64,000 bases of DNA from an uncultured bacterium (GTDB lineage: Bacteria > Patescibacteriota > Minisyncoccia > Minisyncoccales > RBG-13-42-11), in contig CAWBPO010000001.1 of assembly GCA_963790795.1 (NCBI GenBank), positions 204,073-268,072 on the forward strand. The letters are read 5' to 3'. How positions within the stretch are numbered: position 1 is the first letter of the stretch; the number at the start of each line of letters is the position of its first letter. Below, piece by piece: positions 1-41,995 of the stretch. Below the pieces are notes generated by a model. The model did not search any database, was not told the origin of the DNA, and saw nothing but the letters and a program-made list of their open reading frames with translations. The position numbers were made by a program, and so were the translations under genes.

Positions 1-377
1 TCCCGCCCGGACATAATGAAATTCCTGAAAAATACAGAGAAATCGGCCAGCCAGTCTTGATTCCAGGTTCAATGGGCACAGCTTCCTATGTTTTGGTCGG
101 TCAAAAAACCGGCCGAGAAGCATTCTTTTCTACTTGTCACGGTGCGGGCAGAACAATGTCAAGGAACGAAGCAAAAAGAAGAATATCTGGACAGGAAGTG
201 ATAAAAAGCTTAGAATCAAAAGGAATTATCGTGAAATGCCAGGACATGAAAGGAATTGCTGAAGAAGCGCCTCAAGCATATAAAGACATTCATGAAGTGG
301 TTGAAGTTGTTCACAAAGCTGGTTTATCAAAAAAAGTGGCAAGGCTCGTGCCTTTAGCTGTTATTAAAGGAGAATAA
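1..377 (+). CDS. rtcB: RNA-splicing ligase RtcB, C-terminal part (5' end lies outside the window)
   Basis: Frame is open from the window edge. HNEIPEKYREIGQPVLIPGSMGTASYVLVG...CHGAGR matches the conserved RtcB C-terminal core. Confidence 0.9.
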   Translation, partial: PPGHNEIPEKYREIGQPVLIPGSMGTASYVLVGQKTGREAFFSTCHGAGRTMSRNEAKRRISGQEVIKSLESKGIIVKCQDMKGIAEEAPQAYKDIHEVVEVVHKAGLSKKVARLVPLAVIKGE

Positions 378-625: not shown

Positions 626-2212
626 TCAGAAAACCTTAACCATATAAGTGTCTTCCAGCTTGTATCCTAATTTTCTGAAATAGTTTCTCGCTCCCACAGC
701 GGCAATTACGCTGATTTTTTTTAAGTTGAATTCTTTTTTCGTGATTTTTTCAGCTTCTTTGATTAATTTCTTGCCTAATCCTTGGTGCTGGGGTGATAGC
801 GCAGTTAAACGTTTTTCATTTATCGGCAGTTGCTGGCCGAAAGTGTGGATTTCACGGATAATTGCTTTATTTTGAGAGGTTTTTCTTAAACGGAGCAAGC
901 TGTAAAGCTTTGTTCTGTTTTTATTTTCAAAGCTTAAGAATATTTCTTTGCCTTCAGAAGCATTGTAATCTTTTCTGAATAAATGCAATTTTTCTTTTAT
1001 TTGATAATTATTCCTTACTTCCCTACATCTGATGCATTTACAATGCCAATTTTCATTTTTCATGTTTTGTTTTAAAATCTGGCGGATGTTGGAAATTTTG
1101 GCAGGACCGGCAACAATGCGAAAAGAAGGAATGTCTCTGCTTATCCTTTGTATTCTGACGTAAAAAGGAATATTCTTTTTTATTGTTTTAATCAGATTGA
1201 TTAATTGGTTTTTTGTGTAAGGCTTGTATTTTTTCTTTTTCCATAATTTATATAAAGGAGCTTCTTTTAAAAGGGCGCATGGATAGATTTTTAACAAATC
1301 CGGCTGGAGATCTGGATTTTTAAATAATTCTTTAAAAAGCTCTTTGTCTTTTTTAATGTTGGAGCCTGGCAAGTTGGGCATTATCTGGTAAAGAACCTTA
1401 AATCCTGCGTCTTTTAAAAGTTTTGTCGCTACGATTGTTTCTTTTACGCCGTGTCCTCTTAGGTTTATGTTGAGAATATCGTCATAAATTGTTTGAACTC
1501 CCAATTCAACCATTGTCGCGCCTAAATTTCTCAAGCGTTTTATTTCTTTCTTATCGATAAAGTCCGGTCTCGTTTCAATTGAAAGCCCAACTATTCTGTG
1601 TTTTGCTTTTTCATTAATTCTTTGAGCGTCTTTTAATGTTTTGCTTTTTCTTTTATTGCAGGCGTCAAAGCATCTTTTAACAAACCATTCCTGGTATTTT
1701 TTTGGATAGAAAGACCAGGTGCCACCGACAATCCTCAGCTCAATTTTGTCAGTGGGATGGCCTTCGTTTTCCAGCATTTCAATTCTTAATTTGGTTTGCA
1801 AGAAAGGGTCATAATTCAGTTTTTTAGCTCTTTCAACAGCCGGTTCTCCGGAAACATAGCTTTTCGGAATGTTTGCTTCTTGAGGGCAATAAAGGCATTT
1901 ACCAGGGCAAGGATATGGTTTTGTTAAAACTGAGATGTTGACTATGCCAGAAAGCGAACGAATCGGCCTTGTTATCAATAAAAGCTCCAAAAGTGGAGAT
2001 TTTTTTATCTTTTTCTTTTTGGTTAATTCGTGGTAAGTTTTTAATAGGGAAATGTTATCCGGGCAGGAGATTTTGTGTTTTTTAGCAGCTTTTCTCTTGA
2101 TTTTAGCTAAAGTATCCCGGTCTTTTACCCGATTTTTAATAATTTCTCTTATTATTAATTCTAAAGAATTCATGGATAGCAATTTTGCGAAATACTTATT
2201 AAATAAAACCAA
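626..2212 (-). CDS. elp3: Elp3-family radical SAM / GNAT protein (tRNA wobble-uridine cm5U synthase homolog)
   Basis: Radical-SAM cysteine cluster CPGKCLYCP, TIM-barrel region, and a C-terminal GNAT with QHQGLGKKL acetyl-CoA motif. The longest ORF starts at TTG 2212; an alternative ATG at 2173 (MNSLELIIREI) is at least as plausible. Confidence 0.85.
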   Translation of the reverse strand: MVLFNKYFAKLLSMNSLELIIREIIKNRVKDRDTLAKIKRKAAKKHKISCPDNISLLKTYHELTKKKKIKKSPLLELLLITRPIRSLSGIVNISVLTKPYPCPGKCLYCPQEANIPKSYVSGEPAVERAKKLNYDPFLQTKLRIEMLENEGHPTDKIELRIVGGTWSFYPKKYQEWFVKRCFDACNKRKSKTLKDAQRINEKAKHRIVGLSIETRPDFIDKKEIKRLRNLGATMVELGVQTIYDDILNINLRGHGVKETIVATKLLKDAGFKVLYQIMPNLPGSNIKKDKELFKELFKNPDLQPDLLKIYPCALLKEAPLYKLWKKKKYKPYTKNQLINLIKTIKKNIPFYVRIQRISRDIPSFRIVAGPAKISNIRQILKQNMKNENWHCKCIRCREVRNNYQIKEKLHLFRKDYNASEGKEIFLSFENKNRTKLYSLLRLRKTSQNKAIIREIHTFGQQLPINEKRLTALSPQHQGLGKKLIKEAEKITKKEFNLKKISVIAAVGARNYFRKLGYKLEDTYMVKVF

Positions 2213-2867
2213 ACAAGATTATAATCTAATTGCTGAAGATTTTTCAAGAACCCGTTGGAATATTTGGTCTGAGTTTGGCATTTTTAGAGATTATATTCAA
2301 GACGGAGACAAAGTTTTAGATGCAGGTTGCGGAAACGGTCGGCTTTTGGAATTGTTAAAAGACAAAAAAATTGATTATCTCGGTATTGATATTTCAGATA
2401 AACTGATAGAGTTGGCTAAGAAAAAATATCCCCAGAATAACTTTTTAATTGCCGACACTTTAAATTTACCATTTCCAGACGATAATTTCGATAAAGTTTT
2501 TTCAGTAGCTGTTTTACATACTATTCCTTCGTTTGAGTTTAGGGAAAAAGCATTGTTGGAGCTGAGAAGGGTTTTGAAGCCAGGCGGTATATTGCTGTTG
2601 ACGGTTTGGGATATTTTGCGTGCGAAAAATCTTTTTTTAGCTTTTAAACAATTTCTTCTAAAATTAATCGGAAAATCAAAATTAGATTTTGGAGATGCTT
2701 TTGTCTCTTGGGGTACAAAAACAAATAGATATTATCATTTTTTTACAAACAGAGAATTGAACACGTTAGTGAGTAAGGTCGGTTTTAAAGTAATTGGGAA
2801 AGGTGTTGCCCGGAACGAAAACAAAAAGCGTTCAAATGTTTATATAATTGCTAAAAAGCCCTCGTAG
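2172..2867 (+). CDS. Trm9/ALKBH8-like class I SAM-dependent methyltransferase
   Basis: YNLIAEDFSRTRWNIW, DAGCGNGRLL (motif I), LNLPFPDDNFD, SVAVLHTIPSFEFR, LKPGGILLLTVW and NRYYHFFTNREL parallel the yeast Trm9 signature blocks. ATG 2172 chosen; the 2052 extension would overlap elp3 and looks non-native. Confidence 0.8.
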   Translation: MDSNFAKYLLNKTKQDYNLIAEDFSRTRWNIWSEFGIFRDYIQDGDKVLDAGCGNGRLLELLKDKKIDYLGIDISDKLIELAKKKYPQNNFLIADTLNLPFPDDNFDKVFSVAVLHTIPSFEFREKALLELRRVLKPGGILLLTVWDILRAKNLFLAFKQFLLKLIGKSKLDFGDAFVSWGTKTNRYYHFFTNRELNTLVSKVGFKVIGKGVARNENKKRSNVYIIAKKPS

Positions 2868-2929
2868 TTTAATGGATAGAACATGAGTTTCCGGAACTCA
2901 AAATGCAGGTTCGATTCCTGCTGGGGGCA
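2858..2929 (+). tRNA. tRNA-Arg (anticodon CCG)
   Basis: Manual cloverleaf: acceptor GCCCTCG/TGGGGGC (two G-U pairs), D stem GTTT/GAAC, anticodon stem TGAGT/ACTCA with loop TTCCGGA, T arm GCAGG-TTCGATT-CCTGC, discriminator A. CCA is not encoded. Confidence 0.88.
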
Positions 2930-2944
2930 CTAGAATAAAGAATC

Positions 2945-3170: not shown

Positions 3171-3734
3171 ATGAATTACAAAATCGTTGTTTCAGGTGCA
3201 GCCAGAGTCAGTCATTGCTGCAGAAATATTAAAAAACTGTCTGAAGAGGTTGGCCGGGAAATCGCCAAGAAAAAGTGCATACTTGTTACCGGAGCGACTA
3301 CCGGCGTTCCTTACTTTGCTGCTTTGGGGTGCAAGAAAGCTGGCGGCTTTAACGTTGGTTTTTCGCCAGCCACTTCAGAAGTCGCTCATTTAAAAACCTA
3401 TAAACTGCCTTTAGAGCCCTTTGACGTTATGATTTACACTGGCGCAGATTATGTTGGTAGGGATACGCTTATGACAAAATCAGCTGACGCAGTAATCATC
3501 ATCTGCGGCAGAATGGGCACTATGCACGAATTTACCACTGCTTTTGAAATCCAAAAGCCAATGGGCATTTTGGAAGGAACGGGCGGGACAGCAGATAAGA
3601 TAAGGTCAATTATTACCGGCCCTCACCGTAGGGTAGCCAAGATCGCTTATGACGAAAACCCTAAGAAATTGGTTGAAGAGGTTATTAATTTGATAAAAAA
3701 AGAGAAAAAATCAAATTCAAAATATAAAAGCTAA
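3171..3734 (+). CDS. SLOG/LOG-like Rossmann protein (TIGR00725-type, 'lysine decarboxylase-like' family)
   Basis: VTGATTGVP nucleotide-binding loop and ICGRMGTMHEF, which resembles the LOG PGGxGTxxE motif. An extended -10 (TGTTAAAAT) lies at 3148-3156. Confidence 0.7.
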   Translation: MNYKIVVSGAARVSHCCRNIKKLSEEVGREIAKKKCILVTGATTGVPYFAALGCKKAGGFNVGFSPATSEVAHLKTYKLPLEPFDVMIYTGADYVGRDTLMTKSADAVIIICGRMGTMHEFTTAFEIQKPMGILEGTGGTADKIRSIITGPHRRVAKIAYDENPKKLVEEVINLIKKEKKSNSKYKS

Positions 3735-3765: not shown

Positions 3766-4029
3766 ATGGCAGACGAAAAAAAAGAAGGAAAATTAATAGG
3801 CAGAATTACCCACTTTTTCGGCAATATCGGAGTGGCGGTAATTGAGGTTTCAGACAGATTGAGAGCCGGCGATACTATCAGAATTGTCGGCGGAAACGTT
3901 GATTTCGAGGAAAAAGTTGACTCAATGGAAATGGACCATCAGAGAGTCAGTGAAGCTAAAAAAGGCAATTCTGTTGGCGTGAAGGTTTCCCAGAAAGTTC
4001 ACGAAGGATACAAGGTTTTCAGGATATAG
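3766..4029 (+). CDS. translation-elongation-factor-like beta-barrel domain protein (EF-Tu domain II-like)
   Basis: 87 aa. GRITHFFGNIGVAVIEV...GDTIRIVG...GNSVGVKV pattern is typical of stand-alone EF-Tu domain-2-like barrels. Confidence 0.6.
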   Translation: MADEKKEGKLIGRITHFFGNIGVAVIEVSDRLRAGDTIRIVGGNVDFEEKVDSMEMDHQRVSEAKKGNSVGVKVSQKVHEGYKVFRI

Positions 4030-4095: not shown

Positions 4096-5343
4096 ATGAA
4101 GTTTATAGCGGATTTTCACATTCACAGCAAATATTCGAGAGCCACTTCCAGGGACATGGATTTGGAAAATCTTGATAAGTGGGCGAGAATCAAGGGCATT
4201 AAGGTTTTAGGCACGGGAGACTTCAGTCATCCGGAATGGTTCAAATCTTTAAAAGAAAAATTAGAGCCCGCAGAACTCGGGCTTTTTAAAATTAAAAAAC
4301 AGGATAACGCTACGCGTTTTATTTTAACCAATGAAATCAGTTGCATTTATTCCAAAAACGGGAGAGTCAGGAAAATTCATGTTTTAATCTTTGCTCCTTC
4401 TTTCGAGGCAGTTGAAAAAATTAACGTTCAGTTGGGCTGGATAGGCAATTTGAAATCAGACGGCAGGCCGATTTTGGGATTAGATGCCAAAGAATTGGCA
4501 AAGATTGTTTTAAGCGCTTCGGAAGACTGTTTGGTTGTGCCTGCTCACTGTATGACTCCCTGGTTTGCCATTTTCGGTTCGAAATCAGGGTTTGATTCAA
4601 TTGAAGAGTGTTTTGAAGACTTTTCAAAATATATTTATGCCATGGAAACTGGCCTTAGCGCTTCCCCGGCTATGCTTTGGAGGATGCCAGCTGGCAGGAA
4701 AACAGCTCTTATCTCAAACAGCGATGCTCACAGTCCGAGAAAAATAGGCAGGGAAGCAAATGTTTTTGATACGGAGTTAAGCTATAAATCAATTGTTGAA
4801 GCGATAAAAACTAAAGACTCCAAGAAATTTTTATATACCATTGAATTTTTTCCTGAAGAAGGCAAATATCATTTTGACGGCCACAGAAACTGCGAAATCA
4901 GACTTTCTCCTAAAGAAACCAAGAAATACAACGGCATTTGCCCGGTTTGCGGAAAACCGTTAACCATCGGAGTTTTAAACAGGGTTGACGAACTGGCTGA
5001 CAAAGAAGAAGGTTTTGAGCCGGAAAACGCCGTTCCTTTTAAAAGTTTGGTTCCTTTGGAAGAGATTATTGCCGATGCTTTACAAATGACCGTAAATACA
5101 AAAGAAGTTGAAAAATCATACAAAATCTTAATTGAGAAATTCGGTTCTGAGTTTAACGTTCTTCTTGAAGCTTCTTTGGAAAGATTGCAAGCGGTTGTTC
5201 TTCCTGAAATTGCCGAAGGAATAGTAAGGGTGAGAGGGGGAAAAGTAAGCAAAGAGCCCGGGTATGATGGAGTATTCGGGAAAATTAGAATTTTTAACCA
5301 AGGAGAAGAGAAAAAGTTGTCAAAGCAAAAAACCTTGTTTTAA
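4096..5343 (+). CDS. endonuclease Q (EndoQ) family protein, PHP domain + Zn finger
   Basis: DFHIHSKYSRATS, GTGDFSHPEW, SNSDAHSPRKIGREANVF, GKYHFDGH, CPVCGKPLTIGVLNRV and GYDGVFGKIRI line up with the conserved blocks of archaeal EndoQ. Confidence 0.85.
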   Translation: MKFIADFHIHSKYSRATSRDMDLENLDKWARIKGIKVLGTGDFSHPEWFKSLKEKLEPAELGLFKIKKQDNATRFILTNEISCIYSKNGRVRKIHVLIFAPSFEAVEKINVQLGWIGNLKSDGRPILGLDAKELAKIVLSASEDCLVVPAHCMTPWFAIFGSKSGFDSIEECFEDFSKYIYAMETGLSASPAMLWRMPAGRKTALISNSDAHSPRKIGREANVFDTELSYKSIVEAIKTKDSKKFLYTIEFFPEEGKYHFDGHRNCEIRLSPKETKKYNGICPVCGKPLTIGVLNRVDELADKEEGFEPENAVPFKSLVPLEEIIADALQMTVNTKEVEKSYKILIEKFGSEFNVLLEASLERLQAVVLPEIAEGIVRVRGGKVSKEPGYDGVFGKIRIFNQGEEKKLSKQKTLF

Positions 5344-6383
5344 GATTTCGGCAGCCAAGTTATCAGCTTATCTTTAATTTCAAACTTTCCTTCCGTGAAC
5401 TGCTCAATCACCCAAATATTGGTTTTGCAGTGATTGGTAATCTCAGAACTTGTAATCTGGGATTTGTTTTTTGATAAGGCCAAATAAGGCAGAATCTGGT
5501 CGCTAAGATATTTGTCCAAGCAGGCATTTGATTTTTCTTCTTTTAATAGTTCTAAAGCAGCTTCCTTGCCAATATCTTCAGCTCTTTTGCCTAATTTACC
5601 CAAATTGTCCTTGCCGATTATCGTATTTTCAAATTCAGCTATCAGACAAATTTGGCTGCCAGGACATTGAGTCAGATAGTATTCAACTCTTTTTTCTGTA
5701 GGCAGGTTTAATTTTCCTAAAACCTCTCTTGCTCCGGCTAATTGTCTCTCTGCCACTTTTTTCTCTTTCAAAGATTGTGAAGCGCCTGAGATTTGCACAA
5801 TCTTTTTGAGACTGCCTCGTTCAGTCAGATTAAGGCTTTTTAATTTTGCCGGAGAAATTTCCACTTCAACCTTTGCTCCGCCTTCAGGATAATAGCCTCG
5901 TTTTAAAATATTGATTTTGACTAAAGGAAAATCTTTATTTATTTTTTTGAGAATCGGCAAAAACACATAAACAAAATAATCAATGCTTGGAGAGAAAAAA
6001 GTATCGGTTGCTCCTCCTTCAAAGACAATTTTGACAGGATTTTGGGAAAAGAGCGACGCTGGGATCAGTGTTTGCAAGATTAAAGTAATGCTGGCCGCCG
6101 TTTCAATCTTTACTTGAATCTGTTGATGTCTAACTTCAACAGATTTTGAAGGATAGAATTTTATTTCTTCTGAACCGAATTTATCGCCTTCTAATTCGGC
6201 GTTGCTCAACCGGGCCAAAGCTTGAAGCCCTAAAAGGTGCTGCGGCATTAATCCCGGCTTTTCCCTTCCTTTTCTGATATTAAAAACACGGCAGGGTTTT
6301 TTGGTAACCGCCGACAAAGAGCAAGCAGTCCTGAGGATTTGGCCGCCGCCTTCCAAGTATGAACCGTCAATTTCAATCATCAT
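5340..6383 (-). CDS. rtcA: RNA 3'-terminal phosphate cyclase
   Basis: [48 protein letters not shown] is the canonical RtcA N-terminus. 347 aa. Confidence 0.92.
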
Positions 6384-7832: not shown

Positions 7833-8572
7833 AGAAATTTGTTTATCTTCTCGCAATTTTTATTGGATTATTTCTGCTTTTCGGGCCGGAAGTCATACCG
7901 GACAATTTTCAGCCGCAGGAAGTTTTAGCAACAGCTCAGAACAGCGATGTTATTATCGTTTTTAATTTAGGAGGATGGGGCGATGCGCCCTTTGAAGAAG
8001 CAGATGATTTTGCTCCGATTATTGAAAAAATGCAGCAGATTCTTGATCAATGGGGTTACAGCGCAGCAGTTATCCCTTATACCAGGACAAAAGATGATTT
8101 ATTTGGAAGGATAGCCGGTTTAAGAGAATTAATGAATAATTTTAAAAACTCTTCAAATGATTTGGCTGAAAAAATTGAATCTCTTAATGAAAACTTTCCC
8201 GATAAAAAGATTATTGTAACCGGACTTTCTGTTGGCGGAGCTTTTGCCACAAAAACTTACGAAAAGCTTTCCGAGGAAGTCAAAAACTCAGTCTATACCA
8301 TTGCTGTCGGCACTCCTTTTTGGGCAGACAATTTTGAAAACAGCAATCTTATCCAGGTGGACAATGAAGGAAAAGACAGTTTAGTTGAGGGGGACGTTAG
8401 TCCTTTGTTTTTTTCTTTGGTGAAAAGCCCTTTTAAATGGCTTGTTGCTAAGATTAACGGTCAGAATTTGCCTTTATCCAGAGCTTTTCAGGCCCCGGGA
8501 CATAATTATTATTGGGAATCGCCTGAAGTCGGCCCCAAAATCATCAGTTTTCTTAGCGATAAATTACGCTGA
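7829..8572 (+). CDS. membrane-anchored hypothetical protein, possible alpha/beta-hydrolase
   Basis: N-terminal TM helix. GLSVGG matches a GxSxG nucleophile elbow. 4-nt overlap with the upstream gene. Confidence 0.45.
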   Translation: MKKFVYLLAIFIGLFLLFGPEVIPDNFQPQEVLATAQNSDVIIVFNLGGWGDAPFEEADDFAPIIEKMQQILDQWGYSAAVIPYTRTKDDLFGRIAGLRELMNNFKNSSNDLAEKIESLNENFPDKKIIVTGLSVGGAFATKTYEKLSEEVKNSVYTIAVGTPFWADNFENSNLIQVDNEGKDSLVEGDVSPLFFSLVKSPFKWLVAKINGQNLPLSRAFQAPGHNYYWESPEVGPKIISFLSDKLR

Positions 8573-8577
8573 TTTCT

Positions 8578-9591
8578 ATGAAAAAGCTTTTACTTCTTTT
8601 ATTCTCTTTGCTGGCTGGCGCAGTCATTTTCGTTTGGGTTTTGAGAACAGTCGGCTGGCAGGAAATTAAAAACGCTCTCTTGGTTTTTAGTGGCTGGAAG
8701 GGTTTGGTAATTTTGTTGATTACTTTTTTGATGGCTGTTATCGGAACATGGAAGTGGAAGGCGATTTTGGACGGAAAAGGCCAGAGAGTCTCTTTTGGAG
8801 AACTTTGGCGGTATTACCTTGCCACTTTTTCCATCAGGCTTTTCGTGCCGATAGCCATTGTTGGAGCTGAGATTTTTCAGGGATACATTTTAAAAAAGAA
8901 AAATTCCATTCCCTGGGATCAAGGAATGGCATCGGTCATAATTGACAGAATTTTGGAATGGACGGCTAATTTAGTGGTAATTTTTCTGGGTGCAGTGTTT
9001 TTTCTTTTAATGATTGGCGTTCCGCCGATAAACCTGGTGATAATTTTTGGCAGCATATTTTTGGTTCTGGCAGCCGCAATTTCCTTCTTTTATTTCAAGG
9101 CTTTCAAGCGGCAAAGCATGGCAAAATTTTTTTGCAAGTTTTTTAACAATAGCTTGGACAGCCAGCTGTTTAACATTGAAAAAGAAATCTTTGTTTTTTT
9201 TAAGCTGAAAAAGAAAAACATGTGGAAAGTTTTCGGCTTGAACTTTCTGAGGGCTAGTTTCATGCTTTTGCGGACATGGATTTTAATCATTTTTTTGGGC
9301 GGGAAGATCAGTATTTTATCAGCCCTGTCCGTTCTCGGTTTTACTTACTTGGCAGTAGCCATTCCCATACCGACCGCTCTTGGCTCTCACGAGGCAATTC
9401 AGTTATTCGCTTTTAATTATTTGCATTTGAAAACCGCCACAGCTACTGCTTTTACAATGATTATCAGGGGGGCGGAAGTAATGGTTGCCTTGGTCGGAGT
9501 AATAATTTTATTCCGCTTGGGCGCATTTTTAATAAAAGAAACAATTTTTAAAAGATTTAACAGTTTTTCAAACAACAATGATAGGAATTAA
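8578..9591 (+). CDS. UPF0104 / lysylphosphatidylglycerol-synthase-TM-region-like (flippase-like) membrane protein
   Basis: About 8 predicted TM segments, with the overall pattern of the 'flippase-like domain' family. Confidence 0.55.
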   Translation: MKKLLLLLFSLLAGAVIFVWVLRTVGWQEIKNALLVFSGWKGLVILLITFLMAVIGTWKWKAILDGKGQRVSFGELWRYYLATFSIRLFVPIAIVGAEIFQGYILKKKNSIPWDQGMASVIIDRILEWTANLVVIFLGAVFFLLMIGVPPINLVIIFGSIFLVLAAAISFFYFKAFKRQSMAKFFCKFFNNSLDSQLFNIEKEIFVFFKLKKKNMWKVFGLNFLRASFMLLRTWILIIFLGGKISILSALSVLGFTYLAVAIPIPTALGSHEAIQLFAFNYLHLKTATATAFTMIIRGAEVMVALVGVIILFRLGAFLIKETIFKRFNSFSNNNDRN

Positions 9592-10204: not shown

Positions 10205-11962
10205 ATGAAAAACCAAGAACTAGCCAAACTCTTTTATGAAATAGCAGATTATTTAGGGATGGAGGAGGTGGCTTTCAAACCATATGCTTATCAAAAAGCA
10301 GCTGCTGCTTTGGAAGGCATGGAAGAAGATGTGGAAGACATTTACAAGCGGGGGGGCATAAAAGAGCTTGAAGAAATACCGGGAGTCGGCAAAAGCATTG
10401 CCCAAAAGATTGAAGAATATTTAAAAACAGGGAAAATCAAATATTATCAGAAGCTCAAGAAACTTTTGCCTTTAAATTTGGAAGAAATAATTGCTGTTGA
10501 AGGAATGGGGCCAAAAAGAGCAAAGCTTCTTTATCAGAAGCTGGGAGTAAAGAATATAAAAGAACTGGAAAAAGCAGCCAGATCTCACAAGATTGCCTCT
10601 TTATTCGGCTTCGGCGAGAAAACAGAAAAAAATATTCTGGAAGGCATTGCTTTTTTGAAAAGGTCAAAAGGCAGATTTCTTTTAGGGGAGATTTTTCCTT
10701 TAGTAAAAGAGATTTTAGGCAAATTAAAAACTTTAAAAGAAGTGGAGCAAGTCAGCGCAGCTGGTTCTGTCAGGAGAATGAAAGAAACCATCGGTGATGT
10801 TGATATTTTAGCAACGGCCAAAAATCCAAAAAAAGTTATGGATTTTTTTGTTCAGCTGCCGGACATAACAAAAATATGGGGCAAAGGACCGACAAAATCT
10901 TCCATAAGGCTAAAAGAAGGATTTGACGTTGATATACGGGTGGTCACTAAAAAATCTTTTGGTTCAGCCCTCCAGTATTTTACCGGTTCAAAAGAGCATA
11001 ATATAGTTTTAAGGAGGATTGCTATTGAAAAAGGATTGAAATTAAACGAATACGGGCTTTTTAAAGGAAAGAAAATGATTGCCGGATGGTATGAAAACGG
11101 CATTTATCGGGCGCTTGGCCTTTCCTGGGTTGAACCTGAATTAAGAGAAGGCCAAGGAGAAATAGAAGCAGCCCTTCGACAAGCTCAGGGCAAGCCAAAC
11201 GGATTGCCAAAAATCATTGGCTACAAAGACATTAAAGGAGACTTGCATTGCCATTCTACTTGGGACGGCGGAGTAAACACAATTGAAGTTATGGCAAAAA
11301 CTGCTCAGGATATGGGTTACCAATACATCGGTATTGCCGATCATACAAAGTTTTTAAGGATTGAGAACGGATTGAACGAAAAAGAGTTAGAACAACAGCG
11401 GAAAGAGATTGATAAATTAAATGAAAAACTTGTCCCGTACCGAACCGAAGGTTCTGGTGCGGGGTTCCGCATTCTCCAGGGATGCGAAGCGAACATTTTG
11501 TCTGACGGCTCGATCGACATCAAAGACGAAGCGTTAAAGAAGCTAGATTTTGTTATTGCCGGAGTCCATTCAGCTTTTAAAATGGAAAAATCAAAAATGA
11601 CAGAAAGAATAATCAAAGCAATGGAAAATCCGAATGTAGATATAATTTCTCATCCGACAGGCAGGATTTTGAAAAAGAGGGACGAATATCAAATTGATTT
11701 TGATAGGATTTTAAGAACGGCCAAAGAAACAAAAACAATTTTAGAAATTAATTCTTGGCCGGAAAGATTGGATTTGAATGACAGGAACATTAAAAAAGCA
11801 AAGACAGCTGGCGTGAAAATGATAATTAACACCGATTCTCACGACAAAAATCATTTAAGGTTCATGGAGTTCGGCATTGCCCAGGCTCGTCGCGGCTGGG
11901 CTGAAAAAAGCGATATTATTAACAGCCAGCCATTGGCAAAATTATTAAAATTTTTCAAATAA
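10205..11962 (+). CDS. polX: family X DNA polymerase with C-terminal PHP domain (PolX)
   Basis: HhH motifs (IPGVGKSIAQKI, VEGMGPKRA), GSVRRMKETIGDVDIL nucleotidyltransferase motif, and PHP region DLHCHSTWDGG...IADHT...SHP...DSH. Confidence 0.9.
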   Translation: MKNQELAKLFYEIADYLGMEEVAFKPYAYQKAAAALEGMEEDVEDIYKRGGIKELEEIPGVGKSIAQKIEEYLKTGKIKYYQKLKKLLPLNLEEIIAVEGMGPKRAKLLYQKLGVKNIKELEKAARSHKIASLFGFGEKTEKNILEGIAFLKRSKGRFLLGEIFPLVKEILGKLKTLKEVEQVSAAGSVRRMKETIGDVDILATAKNPKKVMDFFVQLPDITKIWGKGPTKSSIRLKEGFDVDIRVVTKKSFGSALQYFTGSKEHNIVLRRIAIEKGLKLNEYGLFKGKKMIAGWYENGIYRALGLSWVEPELREGQGEIEAALRQAQGKPNGLPKIIGYKDIKGDLHCHSTWDGGVNTIEVMAKTAQDMGYQYIGIADHTKFLRIENGLNEKELEQQRKEIDKLNEKLVPYRTEGSGAGFRILQGCEANILSDGSIDIKDEALKKLDFVIAGVHSAFKMEKSKMTERIIKAMENPNVDIISHPTGRILKKRDEYQIDFDRILRTAKETKTILEINSWPERLDLNDRNIKKAKTAGVKMIINTDSHDKNHLRFMEFGIAQARRGWAEKSDIINSQPLAKLLKFFK

Positions 11963-14529: not shown

Positions 14530-14548
14530 ATTAATAATTTAATTTTTG

Positions 14549-14899
14549 TGGAGATGGCGGGATTGGACCCGCGTCTGAGGAGTTTTTCTGAAATAATTCT
14601 ACAGGTTTAGTTCAGTTTTTTAGAAAGCATAGAGTCTAAACTGAACAAAATATCTATACCCTGAATCCAATTATTTTTCAATAGTTTTTCCGGATTCTGA
14701 AAAAACCATTTATCTCGCTAAGTTTGACACTCGATTTTGCTAAGCGAGAATCAGCAAAACGAATGGCTCTGCTACTTATGCGTAAGCAAGAGCAGGTTGT
14801 TTGAATAAGTTGGCACTTATCCTTTTTGCCAGTTTTTGCAAGTTCTGACAACTTGACCTGATTATTTCAGTCCGCTTCTCATCGAAGCATTTCATCCCC
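14549..14899 (-). ncRNA. ssrA: tmRNA (SsrA)
   Basis: 5' GGGGATG pairs with 3' CATCTCC, including the G3:U pair. T-arm GCGGGTCCAATCCCGC. Tag reading frame 14776-14814: GCC AAC TTA TTC AAA CAA CCT GCT CTT GCT TAC GCA TAA = ANLFKQPALAYA*. Confidence 0.9.
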
Positions 14900-15341
14900 G
14901 CATTTTTAATTCTCTTTCTATCTCTTTTTTAAGCGTTCTTTTTTTAATCGTTTCTCTTTTATCCGCTTTCTTTTTTCCTTTTGCTATGCCAAATTCCAGT
15001 TTTATTTTAGCTTTTTTAGTATATACCTTTAATGGCACTAAAGTCAATCCTTTCTCTTTTGTTTTGCCGATCAGGTACTTAATTTCAGATTTTTTCAAAA
15101 GAAGCTTTCTCGGACGCTCGGCTAGATAATCGGAAGGAGCGTTTTTAGGCTGATAGGGTGGGATATTGGCTCCAACCAGGAAGATTTCCCCATTATTTAA
15201 AGTCACATAGGAGCCAGCTAAGTTTATTCTTCCTGTTTTGATTGATTTTACTTCTTGTCCGATTAAAACAATACCAGCCTCGATTTTCTCCAGGATTTCG
15301 TAGTTAAAATATGCTTTTTTGTTTTCAGACAATACCTTCAT
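14892..15341 (-). CDS. smpB: SsrA-binding protein SmpB
   Basis: NKKAYFNYEILEKIEAGIVLIGQEVKSIK.... Confidence 0.95.
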   Translation of the reverse strand: MKVLSENKKAYFNYEILEKIEAGIVLIGQEVKSIKTGRINLAGSYVTLNNGEIFLVGANIPPYQPKNAPSDYLAERPRKLLLKKSEIKYLIGKTKEKGLTLVPLKVYTKKAKIKLEFGIAKGKKKADKRETIKKRTLKKEIERELKMRG

Positions 15342-40775: not shown

Positions 40776-41333
40776 GTGAATTCAGGAACTAAATGGGCTC
40801 TAGTAATCTTTGGAGTAGTGATTGTTCTCTTGCTCTTTGGCTTTCTTGTTCCGGCCAAACAGGAAGCCTATACTGTTCAGGAACCCTATGACGCTCAAGA
40901 AGCCTATACTGTTCAGGAACCCTATGAAGTCATAGAGACTTATACCGAAAAAGAGCCGTATGAGGCTACGGAATACTATACGGCGTATGTGCCATACACT
41001 TATCGGGTTATTTGCGGCCAAGATTGCCGTCCAGGACCAGGACCAGGACCAGGACCAGGGCCAGGACCAGGGCCAGGACCAGGACCAGGACCCAATCCAC
41101 ATCCAGGACCAGGACCAGGGCCAGGGCCACAATGTGTCCCTCGTTATTGTACAGAGCAGGGAATTCAAGCCGTAACACAGAGTCGGACCGTCACAAAGTA
41201 CCGGGACGTTGAGAAACAGAGGACTGTTACTAAATATAAGGAGGTAACAAAGTACCAAACCGTCACAAAGTACAGACCTGTTCCTCATTATCGAATGGTC
41301 CCTCTATTTAGCTCCACGCCGCCATCCAATTGA
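40776..41333 (+). CDS. membrane-anchored tandem-repeat protein with (Pro-Gly)n tract
   Basis: GTG start 5 nt after AAGGAGGT. One TM helix. Four ExYTxxEPYxxx repeats, then C...C-(PG)13-PNPH-(PG)5-C...C, then TVTKY(R/K/Q) repeats. GC-richer than the genome background. Confidence 0.7.
   Translation: MNSGTKWALVIFGVVIVLLLFGFLVPAKQEAYTVQEPYDAQEAYTVQEPYEVIETYTEKEPYEATEYYTAYVPYTYRVICGQDCRPGPGPGPGPGPGPGPGPGPGPNPHPGPGPGPGPQCVPRYCTEQGIQAVTQSRTVTKYRDVEKQRTVTKYKEVTKYQTVTKYRPVPHYRMVPLFSSTPPSN
40863..40927 (+). repeat. 36-nt-period tandem duplication inside the CDS
   Basis: GAAGCCTATACTGTTCAGGAACCCTATGA occurs identically at 40863-40891 and 40899-40927. Confidence 0.9.
41031..41128 (+). repeat. (CCAGGA/CCAGGG)n hexanucleotide simple-sequence repeat encoding (PG)n
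   Basis: Two blocks, 41031-41092 and 41103-41128, of CCAGGN units. Confidence 0.95.
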
Positions 41334-41410: not shown

Positions 41411-41995
41411 ATGGAAATTTTAAATCTTTCATCAAAAACTTTCTCAAATATAATTAGAAAAGCAGTTGAGATAGTGAGAAAAGGCGGAATTGTTGTTTTC
41501 CCGACAGATACTGTTTACGGATTGATGGCTGACGCGACGAATGAAAAAGCAGTTGAAAAGATTTTCAAAATTAAAAAAAGGCAGAAAGGGAAATGGCTAC
41601 CTGTTTTTATTAAAGATTTAAAATCAGCTAAGAATATAGCCAAAATAGACAAAAAACAGGAAAGATTCCTAAAATCTGTTTGGCCGGGGAAAACAACAGT
41701 TGTTTTAAGAAGAAAAAAAGGAACAAAGATATACGGCGTTGATAAAGATACTATTGCCCTTAGGATTCCTAATTATGCTTTGTTGGATAAACTGCTTGGA
41801 AAAATCAAGAAACCTTTAGTACAAACTTCAGCGAACATTTCCGGCAAAAAGCCGCTAAATGACGGAAAAGAAACAATCAAGCAATTCAAGAAAGACAAGC
41901 CTGATTTAATAATTTCTGTCGGCAGATTGAAATCAGTTAAGCCTTCAAAAGTTATTGATATTATTGGTTCTAAAGCGAAAACTTTGAGAAAATAA
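41411..41995 (+). CDS. tsaC: L-threonylcarbamoyladenylate synthase (TsaC/YrdC/Sua5 family)
   Basis: GGIVVFPTDTVYGLMADATNEKAVEKIFKIKKR and QTSANISG. Confidence 0.9.
   Translation: MEILNLSSKTFSNIIRKAVEIVRKGGIVVFPTDTVYGLMADATNEKAVEKIFKIKKRQKGKWLPVFIKDLKSAKNIAKIDKKQERFLKSVWPGKTTVVLRRKKGTKIYGVDKDTIALRIPNYALLDKLLGKIKKPLVQTSANISGKKPLNDGKETIKQFKKDKPDLIISVGRLKSVKPSKVIDIIGSKAKTLRK

Follow-up and report, generated by a model that had tools for sequence, protein, structure and literature searches.

Divergent Elp3 and Trm9-like methyltransferase genes in a Patescibacteria bacterium: a candidate two-step wobble-uridine module of the archaeal and eukaryotic type

Wobble uridines modified at C5 (xm5U34) are made by MnmE/MnmG in bacteria, and by Elp3 or Elongator followed by the methyltransferase Trm9 in archaea and eukaryotes. 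The archaeal Elp3 proteins and that of Dehalococcoides mccartyi are thought to act alone, and eukaryotic Trm9 requires the partner protein Trm112. In this study we focus on a pair of head-to-head genes, one for Elp3 and one for a Trm9-like methyltransferase, in DNA from an uncultured, ultra-small bacterium of the Patescibacteria, or candidate phyla radiation (CPR). The analysis covers one 64-kb stretch of contig CAWBPO010000001.1, hereafter the window, which is the only portion of the genome analysed. The features on which the argument depends are the following, with S-adenosylmethionine abbreviated as SAM and open reading frame as ORF.

626..2173, minus strand: Elp3, with radical-SAM and GNAT/KAT domains, a predicted tRNA U34 carboxymethylase of 515 amino acids (aa) from ATG 2173 (TIGR01211, Pfam and PDB matches).
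2171..2174, no strand: CATG common to both divergent start codons (read from the sequence).
2172..2867, plus strand: Trm9-like class I SAM methyltransferase of 231 aa, ATG 2172, stop 2865-2867 (PDB, Trm9 profile, hhalign, residues).
2218..2247, minus strand: promoter-like site for Elp3, TTGAAA-18 nucleotides (nt)-TATAAT, matching a sigma-70-like consensus at 11 of 12 positions, inside the methyltransferase ORF (promoter scan).
2247..2846, plus strand: body of the methyltransferase gene, a mosaic stretch when compared with L024, the closest relative (8076-8717 there; DNA identity).
2858..2930, plus strand: tRNA-Arg(CCG), overlapping the last 10 nt of the methyltransferase ORF (ARAGORN and Rfam).

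The translation of the minus-strand ORF includes PYPCPGKCLYCPQE and SPQHQGLGKKLIKE, and both PYPCPGKCLYCP and QHQGLGKKL lie within it (2173 to 626). An earlier note on this DNA had seen in it the hallmarks of Elp3, a radical-SAM cluster and a C-terminal GNAT domain, and all comparisons agree. The Elp3 model TIGR01211 (curated cutoff 350 bits) matches at 552.9 bits over the full length, residues 7-513 falling on model positions 2-520, and Pfam recognises Radical_SAM, Radical_SAM_C and GNAT domains (Acetyltransf_10 at 462-505). Alignments to solved archaeal, bacterial and eukaryotic Elp3 structures likewise span the full length, and the PDB ranking places Methanocaldococcus infernus Elp3 (MinElp3, 6ia8) first with 469 bits, D. 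mccartyi Elp3 (DmcElp3, 5l7j) next with 383 and eukaryotic Elp3 at about 350. The three-cysteine radical-SAM motif CPGKCLYC aligns to the cluster loop of 6ia8; the acetyl-CoA motif QxxGxG is represented by QHQGLGKKL, which aligns to sWQHMGYGRML of MinElp3; and the zinc motif C-x-C-x2-C is found in HCKCIRCREV, aligned to a cysteine-containing segment of MinElp3 (the prokaryote-type Cys triad). Moreover, the alignment begins at residue 18 with MinElp3 and at residue 71 with DmcElp3, a basic N-terminal extension of about 70 residues being common to the window protein and archaeal Elp3. A prokaryote-type, zinc-binding Cys triad, located in the linker between the domains, and an archaeal-type basic N-terminal extension that binds tRNA have both been described for Elp3 (PMC6367351). 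To judge from these matches, the minus-strand gene is a bona fide, full-length Elp3.

The two genes are divergent, and their start codons have 2 nt in common, the plus-strand ATG occupying 2172-2174 and the minus-strand ATG 2173-2171. That both starts share the CATG at 2171-2174 had been proposed on the condition that Elp3 uses ATG 2173, and relatives support this start: L024 and at least 10 other loci offer Elp3 no in-frame start after the upstream stop except the CATG-type ATG, and in many relatives the ATG equivalent to 2172 is the sole in-frame methyltransferase start after a stop. Besides the window, 21 loci show the same CATG geometry; in 7 more no nucleotide separates the two ATGs, and in most of the remaining loci they are less than 20 nt apart. 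Two other starts were considered and rejected. A TTG at 2212 is a possible Elp3 start in the window and is unsupported by relatives; the same holds for a methyltransferase start at ATG 2052 (271 aa), the family N-terminus beginning at the methionine encoded at 2172.

Since the start codons overlap, the promoters must lie inside the partner genes, as the earlier note had argued. For Elp3 this is matched by the strong promoter-like site within the methyltransferase ORF, some 45 nt upstream of the Elp3 ATG, its TATAAT being found at 2223..2218, practically where the note had placed it (about 2219-2224); for the methyltransferase gene, however, the promoter scan passed nothing. The hexamer falls on the methyltransferase codons GAT-TAT-AAT, and its presence is thus partly forced by coding for the conserved residues D16-Y17-N18. 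Promoter-like sites are not enriched in the region, with 3 found against 4.1 expected. In 11 of the 22 CATG-type loci, though not in the window, a TANNNT hexamer stands exactly 6 nt before the Elp3 ATG, where it overlies conserved methyltransferase codons. No Shine-Dalgarno-like motif precedes either start in the 22 CATG-type loci, which is unremarkable, as such motifs precede only 6 of the 56 genes of the window. Elsewhere in the window, TATAAT occurs 5-11 nt before the ATG of several genes, for instance upstream of 58644, 54697, 47681, 34536 and 46965 (minus strand); the upstream regions suggest frequent use of leaderless or very short-leader mRNAs by this organism.

The plus-strand ORF contains the sequence blocks YNLIAEDFSRTRWNIW, DAGCGNG, LNLPF, SVAVLH, LKPGGILLLTVW and RYYHFF, which had been taken to mark it as a relative of Trm9 and ALKBH8 and not a generic methyltransferase. 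Profile scores, profile-profile alignment and conserved residues bear this out. As a single sequence, the protein has its best PDB match in Yarrowia lipolytica Trm9 (5cm2_Z, 60 bits), and a family profile of 58 members again ranks this chain first (89 bits, runner-up 79), the alignments extending to the C-terminal vPW...RYYH block. For the reciprocal comparison with Trm9 and other class I methyltransferases, the Y. lipolytica sequence was taken from the 5cm2_Z alignment and used as a query that gathered 120 fungal Trm9 proteins, of which 38 were built into a profile (A4). This profile gives the window methyltransferase 99.4 bits (99-101 across two Trm9 profile runs) and 111 Elp3-linked relatives 63-114 bits, the lowest being 63.5. 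Run on the PDB, it gives Trm9 336 bits and the best non-Trm9 chain 41.8 bits, so that the window protein exceeds any non-Trm9 chain by about 57 bits and the weakest Elp3-linked relative does so by about 22. Among 1,744 ORFs of at least 100 aa from the window and the related loci, only two further matches were obtained: the Elp3-adjacent methyltransferase of L096 (56 bits) and one other ORF (25 bits). Furthermore, hhalign aligns the family with Trm9 over 212 columns with probability 100 and an E-value of 2.8e-40, the aligned stretch starting at the N-terminal YNxIAxxFSxTR motif and ending at the C-terminal Asn. Pairwise identity to fungal Trm9 is 29-34%. Beyond the SAM core, the Trm9-specific motifs are conserved (N-terminal Y..IA..FS.TR, VW, vPW, RYYH and the C-terminal N). 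As far as profiles and residues can tell, the plus-strand gene is Trm9-like specifically, not a generic methyltransferase.

An AlphaFold2 model of the window methyltransferase (predicted local distance difference test score 92.7) has a Rossmann-like strand order. The family comprises about 1,000 clusters (50% identity, E-value at most 1e-30), a number that may include Trm9 from outside the CPR, and the annotation of the Joint Genome Institute already labels several homologues TRM9 or ALKBH8. Among 150 listed representatives, five are unusually long (280-520 aa) and none of these is fused to Trm112; the scan is uninformative because the long members found were only WecG or dehydrogenase read-throughs.

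In yeast Trm9 the residues R29, D72, H116, W145, W168, R241, Y243 and N271 are required for function and Y18 has been implicated (Létoquart et al., PMC4678810). The corresponding window residues are R28, D73, T117, W146, W180, R186, Y188, N222 and Y17, so that seven of the eight essential residues are present, the exception being H116 (Saccharomyces cerevisiae numbering, prefixed Sc below). Across 201 family members, R28 is invariant, D73 and W146 are each found in 200 and N222 in 199, followed by R186 and Y17 (190 each), W180 (188) and Y188 (143). The SAM-binding motifs are intact, with LDAGCGNG as motif I and D73 as the equivalent of ScD72, and the N-terminal substrate-binding motif (Y..IA..FS.TR, with ScY18 and ScR29) is represented by Y17 and R28. 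W146, W180, R186, Y188 and N222 correspond to the yeast residues that bind tRNA and cm5U.

Whether the two genes belong together was assessed from either side. Eighty genome loci were anchored on the methyltransferase, 79 of them assessable and one too short to judge; in 73 of the 79 a divergent Elp3 lies directly upstream, and six have no adjacent Elp3. Conversely, 31 of 38 metagenome loci anchored on Elp3 were assessable (enough upstream DNA and Elp3 identity of at least 53%), and the methyltransferase is adjacent in 29 of these; distant Elp3 genes (39-41% identity) have no adjoining methyltransferase. The adjacency seen in the earlier note is thus conserved in related genomes whichever gene serves as anchor, about a hundred related genomes and metagenome contigs carrying the pair, and this over a genome-anchored set in which methyltransferase identity to the window falls to 38%. 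Neighbouring genes (RtcB, a SLOG protein, a small beta-barrel protein and a PHP/MJ0043-like protein) are retained near the pair only in closer relatives, and the pair is therefore conserved beyond general synteny. Almost all species-representative genomes with relatives of the methyltransferase are labelled Patescibacteria or CPR, with names such as Parcubacteria, Nealsonbacteria, Paceibacterota and generic 'Saccharibacteria' metagenome-assembled genomes. The cultured Minisyncoccus archaeiphilus PMX.108 (L075), with a complete bacterial chromosome of 1.54 Mb, carries the pair as well.

The methyltransferase has its own history within this conserved setting. Against L024, the closest genome relative, DNA identity is 82-93% up to about position 2246, drops to 42-68% over 2247-2846 and returns to 95-98% from 2847 onwards; at the protein level, the flanking genes are 76-93% identical and Elp3 88-89%, while the methyltransferase reaches 53%. 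The breakpoints lie just past the conserved 5' end of the methyltransferase gene and at the tRNA-Arg gene. Since identity collapses between two conserved anchors, the methyltransferase body appears to have been swapped for a divergent allele. The methyltransferases nearest to that of the window (68%) come from L001 and L093, two loci in which Elp3 identity is only 73%, and within the window's clade Elp3 proteins that are 73-89% identical go with methyltransferases of only 50-60% identity. The incongruent similarities of the two proteins point to allelic replacement of the methyltransferase alone, and the pairing with Elp3 is preserved where the allele was replaced.

We consider it likely that the pair constitutes a two-step wobble-uridine module of the archaeal and eukaryotic type in a CPR bacterium. 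In the first step, assigned from family membership, Elp3 alone would use its radical-SAM and acetyl-CoA-binding domains to carboxymethylate C5 of U34 in some tRNAs, giving 5-carboxymethyluridine (cm5U34). In the second, assigned from the conserved substrate-binding residues together with the gene linkage, the Trm9-like enzyme would methylate the cm5U carboxylate with SAM as the donor, yielding 5-methoxycarbonylmethyluridine (mcm5U34), on which a 2-thiolase, if present, could act further. Control regions situated inside each other's coding sequence would probably keep both genes together and co-expressed. This bacterial group would then probably use a non-bacterial route for a key decoding step. 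MnmE and MnmG gave no match when Escherichia coli proteins were searched by tblastn against the window and 1.37 Mb of related loci; as this DNA is biased to the Elp3/methyltransferase locus, the result is weak evidence.

A number of observations weigh against the two-step module, and some of them count in favour of other explanations. We know of no report of mcm5U in bacterial tRNA, and the mcm5U product of the bacterial members is a predicted function. A gene for a Trm112/YcaR-like protein was sought with a signature motif and with E. coli YcaR (tblastn and phmmer) over the window and about 1.4 Mb of related loci, and none turned up in the window or close to the pair in 124 loci; the enzyme may do without Trm112, or its partner may be encoded elsewhere. 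The active-site pair ScH115-H116 has no full counterpart in the window, which reads H116-T117 (T117 codon at 2520-2522), and the yeast H116A mutant is inactive in vitro (PMC4678810). At this position 126 of 201 family members (63%) have His and the rest T, N, Q, S, A or C; T, N, S or A is found throughout the window's subclade and in 62 close relatives, and Q in 11 others. Such a replacement would fit a methyltransferase that descends from Trm9 and has diverged in function in this subclade: it could methylate a different U34 side chain, Elp3-derived or other, or could mainly help Elp3 by binding tRNA or by a structural role, its methyl-ester activity being weak or absent. The unusual evolutionary dynamics of a gene body swapped independently of Elp3 and the flanks, and the lower identity of the methyltransferases than of Elp3 in the window's clade, would fit as well. 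We nevertheless judge this divergence unlikely: the SAM-binding motifs and the other seven essential residues are in place, the Trm9 profile scores the window protein (99 bits) no lower than His-type members, and no second alignment column, as a compensating change would leave, differs systematically between His-type and non-His-type proteins. In addition, the adjacent His, equivalent to ScH115, is 98% conserved in the family, and the Trm9 structure shows that residue in contact with the same active-site water (PMC4678810).

It is less probable still that the methyltransferase is an unrelated class I enzyme, acting on a small molecule, a protein or another RNA, with an adjacency that stems from genome compaction or shared regulation. 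Pfam and NCBIfam return only generic class I matches (Methyltransf_11, UbiE-like) and no Trm9-specific model, and Foldseek against the PDB places an uncharacterised Methanosarcina mazei methyltransferase (3sm3) marginally above Trm9, so that a structure-only ranking of the predicted model does not separate Trm9 from other small methyltransferases; the six loci with a methyltransferase and no adjacent Elp3 could be read in the same direction. These observations stand against the conserved Trm9 motifs beyond the SAM core, the gap of about 57 bits to non-Trm9 PDB chains, and an adjacency that persists across deep divergence in over 90% of loci while synteny around the pair shifts. Finally, one could suppose that the contig is archaeal or chimeric with archaeal DNA, the pair being an ordinary archaeal system, given that the window Elp3 is nearer to archaeal Elp3 than to that of D. 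mccartyi and that one related locus (L038) is labelled Pacearchaeota. This supposition has next to nothing left to it, as it is already contradicted by the content of the window itself, where the transfer-messenger RNA (tmRNA), SmpB, FtsA, FtsZ, MurA, IF3 and a bacterial-type topoisomerase I (TopA) identify the host as a bacterium, in agreement with the earlier note; moreover, contigs of up to 680 kb and the complete chromosome of L075 show the pair in conserved synteny with genes of the organisms themselves.

The two-step module has known counterparts. Trm9-Trm112 of S. cerevisiae and Y. lipolytica (5cm2) and the methyltransferase domain of ALKBH8-TRMT112 belong to the same fold class, and the identity to fungal Trm9 given above holds over the full length. 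The window protein has in common with eukaryotic Trm9 the motifs Y..IA..FS.TR, DxGCGNG, the SAM-binding Asp, VW, vPW, RYYH and the C-terminal Asn. It differs in its bacterial host, in the Trm112 gene undetected nearby, in the Thr replacing ScH116, in some 11 extra residues (helix 151-165) between VW and vPW, and in lacking the eukaryotic variable insertion before RYYH; furthermore, its gene is physically paired with Elp3, unlike in eukaryotes. Closer to the present case, archaea likewise have a stand-alone Elp3 with a basic N-terminus and Cys triad together with a Trm9 orthologue (PMC6144793, PMC5372719). In Haloferax volcanii, Trm9 (HVO_1032) with Trm112 makes mcm5U, and in Sulfolobus solfataricus the Elp3 and Trm9 genes are clustered (PMC6144793). 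From these systems the window differs by its bacterial host, and dependence on Trm112 has been demonstrated for H. volcanii. D. mccartyi Elp3 (5l7j) is a bacterial stand-alone enzyme with the same domain architecture, but without the basic N-terminus of about 70 residues, and in the literature found no Trm9 partner is discussed for it. MnmE/MnmG, with MnmC, modify the same C5 of U34 for the same decoding purpose as Elp3-Trm9, by unrelated enzymes and chemistry (a GTPase and a flavin adenine dinucleotide enzyme, with glycine and folate).

Bacterial Elp3 has been called 'rare' (PMC6367351), and stand-alone Elp3 is known from archaea and from 'some' or 'numerous' bacteria (PMC6367351, PMC13315578). 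Our literature search yielded no paper that connects Patescibacteria with Elp3 or Trm9 or that describes the pair in bacteria, and nothing relevant on mnmG in CPR; the paper describing Minisyncoccus makes no mention of elp3 or methyltransferase genes. According to a 2017 review, homologues of the eukaryotic Trm112-partner methyltransferases are undetectable in bacteria (PMC5372719), a generalisation that our finding, if the assignment is correct, contradicts. The locus is apparently a bacterial, CPR-wide instance of the known Elp3-Trm9 pathway and is, on our reading, an orthologous transfer of that pathway, partly captured by automated annotation. The surprise is moderate, because the case is built by computation and automated annotation already names some homologues TRM9.

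A Trm9 orthologue closely and widely linked to Elp3 across the CPR would mean that the complete mcm5U pathway reaches into the bacterial domain, and would add one more to the archaeal-like informational genes of CPR bacteria. It would also offer a natural Trm9, possibly Trm112-independent, that tolerates loss of the 'catalytic' His. A broader proposition can be offered tentatively, and we doubt that it holds in full: that much of the CPR decodes through an archaeal-type Elp3-to-Trm9 route instead of MnmE/MnmG, with mcm5U or its 2-thiolated form (mcm5s2U) in bacterial tRNA and a Trm9 that needs neither Trm112 nor, in one large subclade, the second His; and, as part of the same proposition, that the methyltransferase has been exchanged repeatedly between lineages, between anchors formed by the Elp3/methyltransferase 5' junction and the tRNA-Arg gene. 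Repeated exchange could reflect selection on the wobble modification, for example by anticodon nucleases that read mcm5(s2)U. The pathway idea is now testable, since M. archaeiphilus PMX.108, which carries the pair, is in culture.

The tRNA-Arg(CCG) gene lies directly 3' of the methyltransferase in 19 of the 48 loci scanned and within 400 nt of it in 2 more. Because of its C34, this tRNA is not an expected substrate of Elp3; it may be co-transcribed with the methyltransferase or act as a recombination anchor. The genes around the pair, and two markers of the bacterial host, are located as follows.

3-377, plus strand: RtcB (tRNA ligase), C-terminal part at the window edge.
3171-3734: SLOG-cluster4 protein.
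3766-4029: small barrel resembling EF-Tu domain 2.
4096-5343: PHP/MJ0043-like protein.
5340-6383, minus strand: RtcA (RNA 3'-phosphate cyclase).
14546-14899, minus strand: tmRNA, 125 bits.
14892-15341, minus strand: SmpB.

The RNA-repair genes RtcB and RtcA flank the locus, and this RNA-processing neighbourhood is conserved among closer relatives. The tmRNA gene is immediately downstream of SmpB, with an 8-nt overlap (14892-14899). Elsewhere in the window, a PolX-type DNA polymerase with a PHP domain is encoded at 10205-11962 (plus strand), which is unusual for a small genome. An ORF at 40776-41333 (plus strand), which Pfam does not match, encodes a long run of Pro-Gly dipeptides (PGPGPG...) and a hydrophobic segment predicted at the N-terminus; it has a strong Shine-Dalgarno-like motif and is overlapped by an ORF on the opposite strand (40800-41288). 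A Sua5/YrdC gene at 41411-41995 (plus strand), of the pathway for N6-threonylcarbamoyladenosine (t6A), adjoins a tRNA-Leu(CAA) gene.

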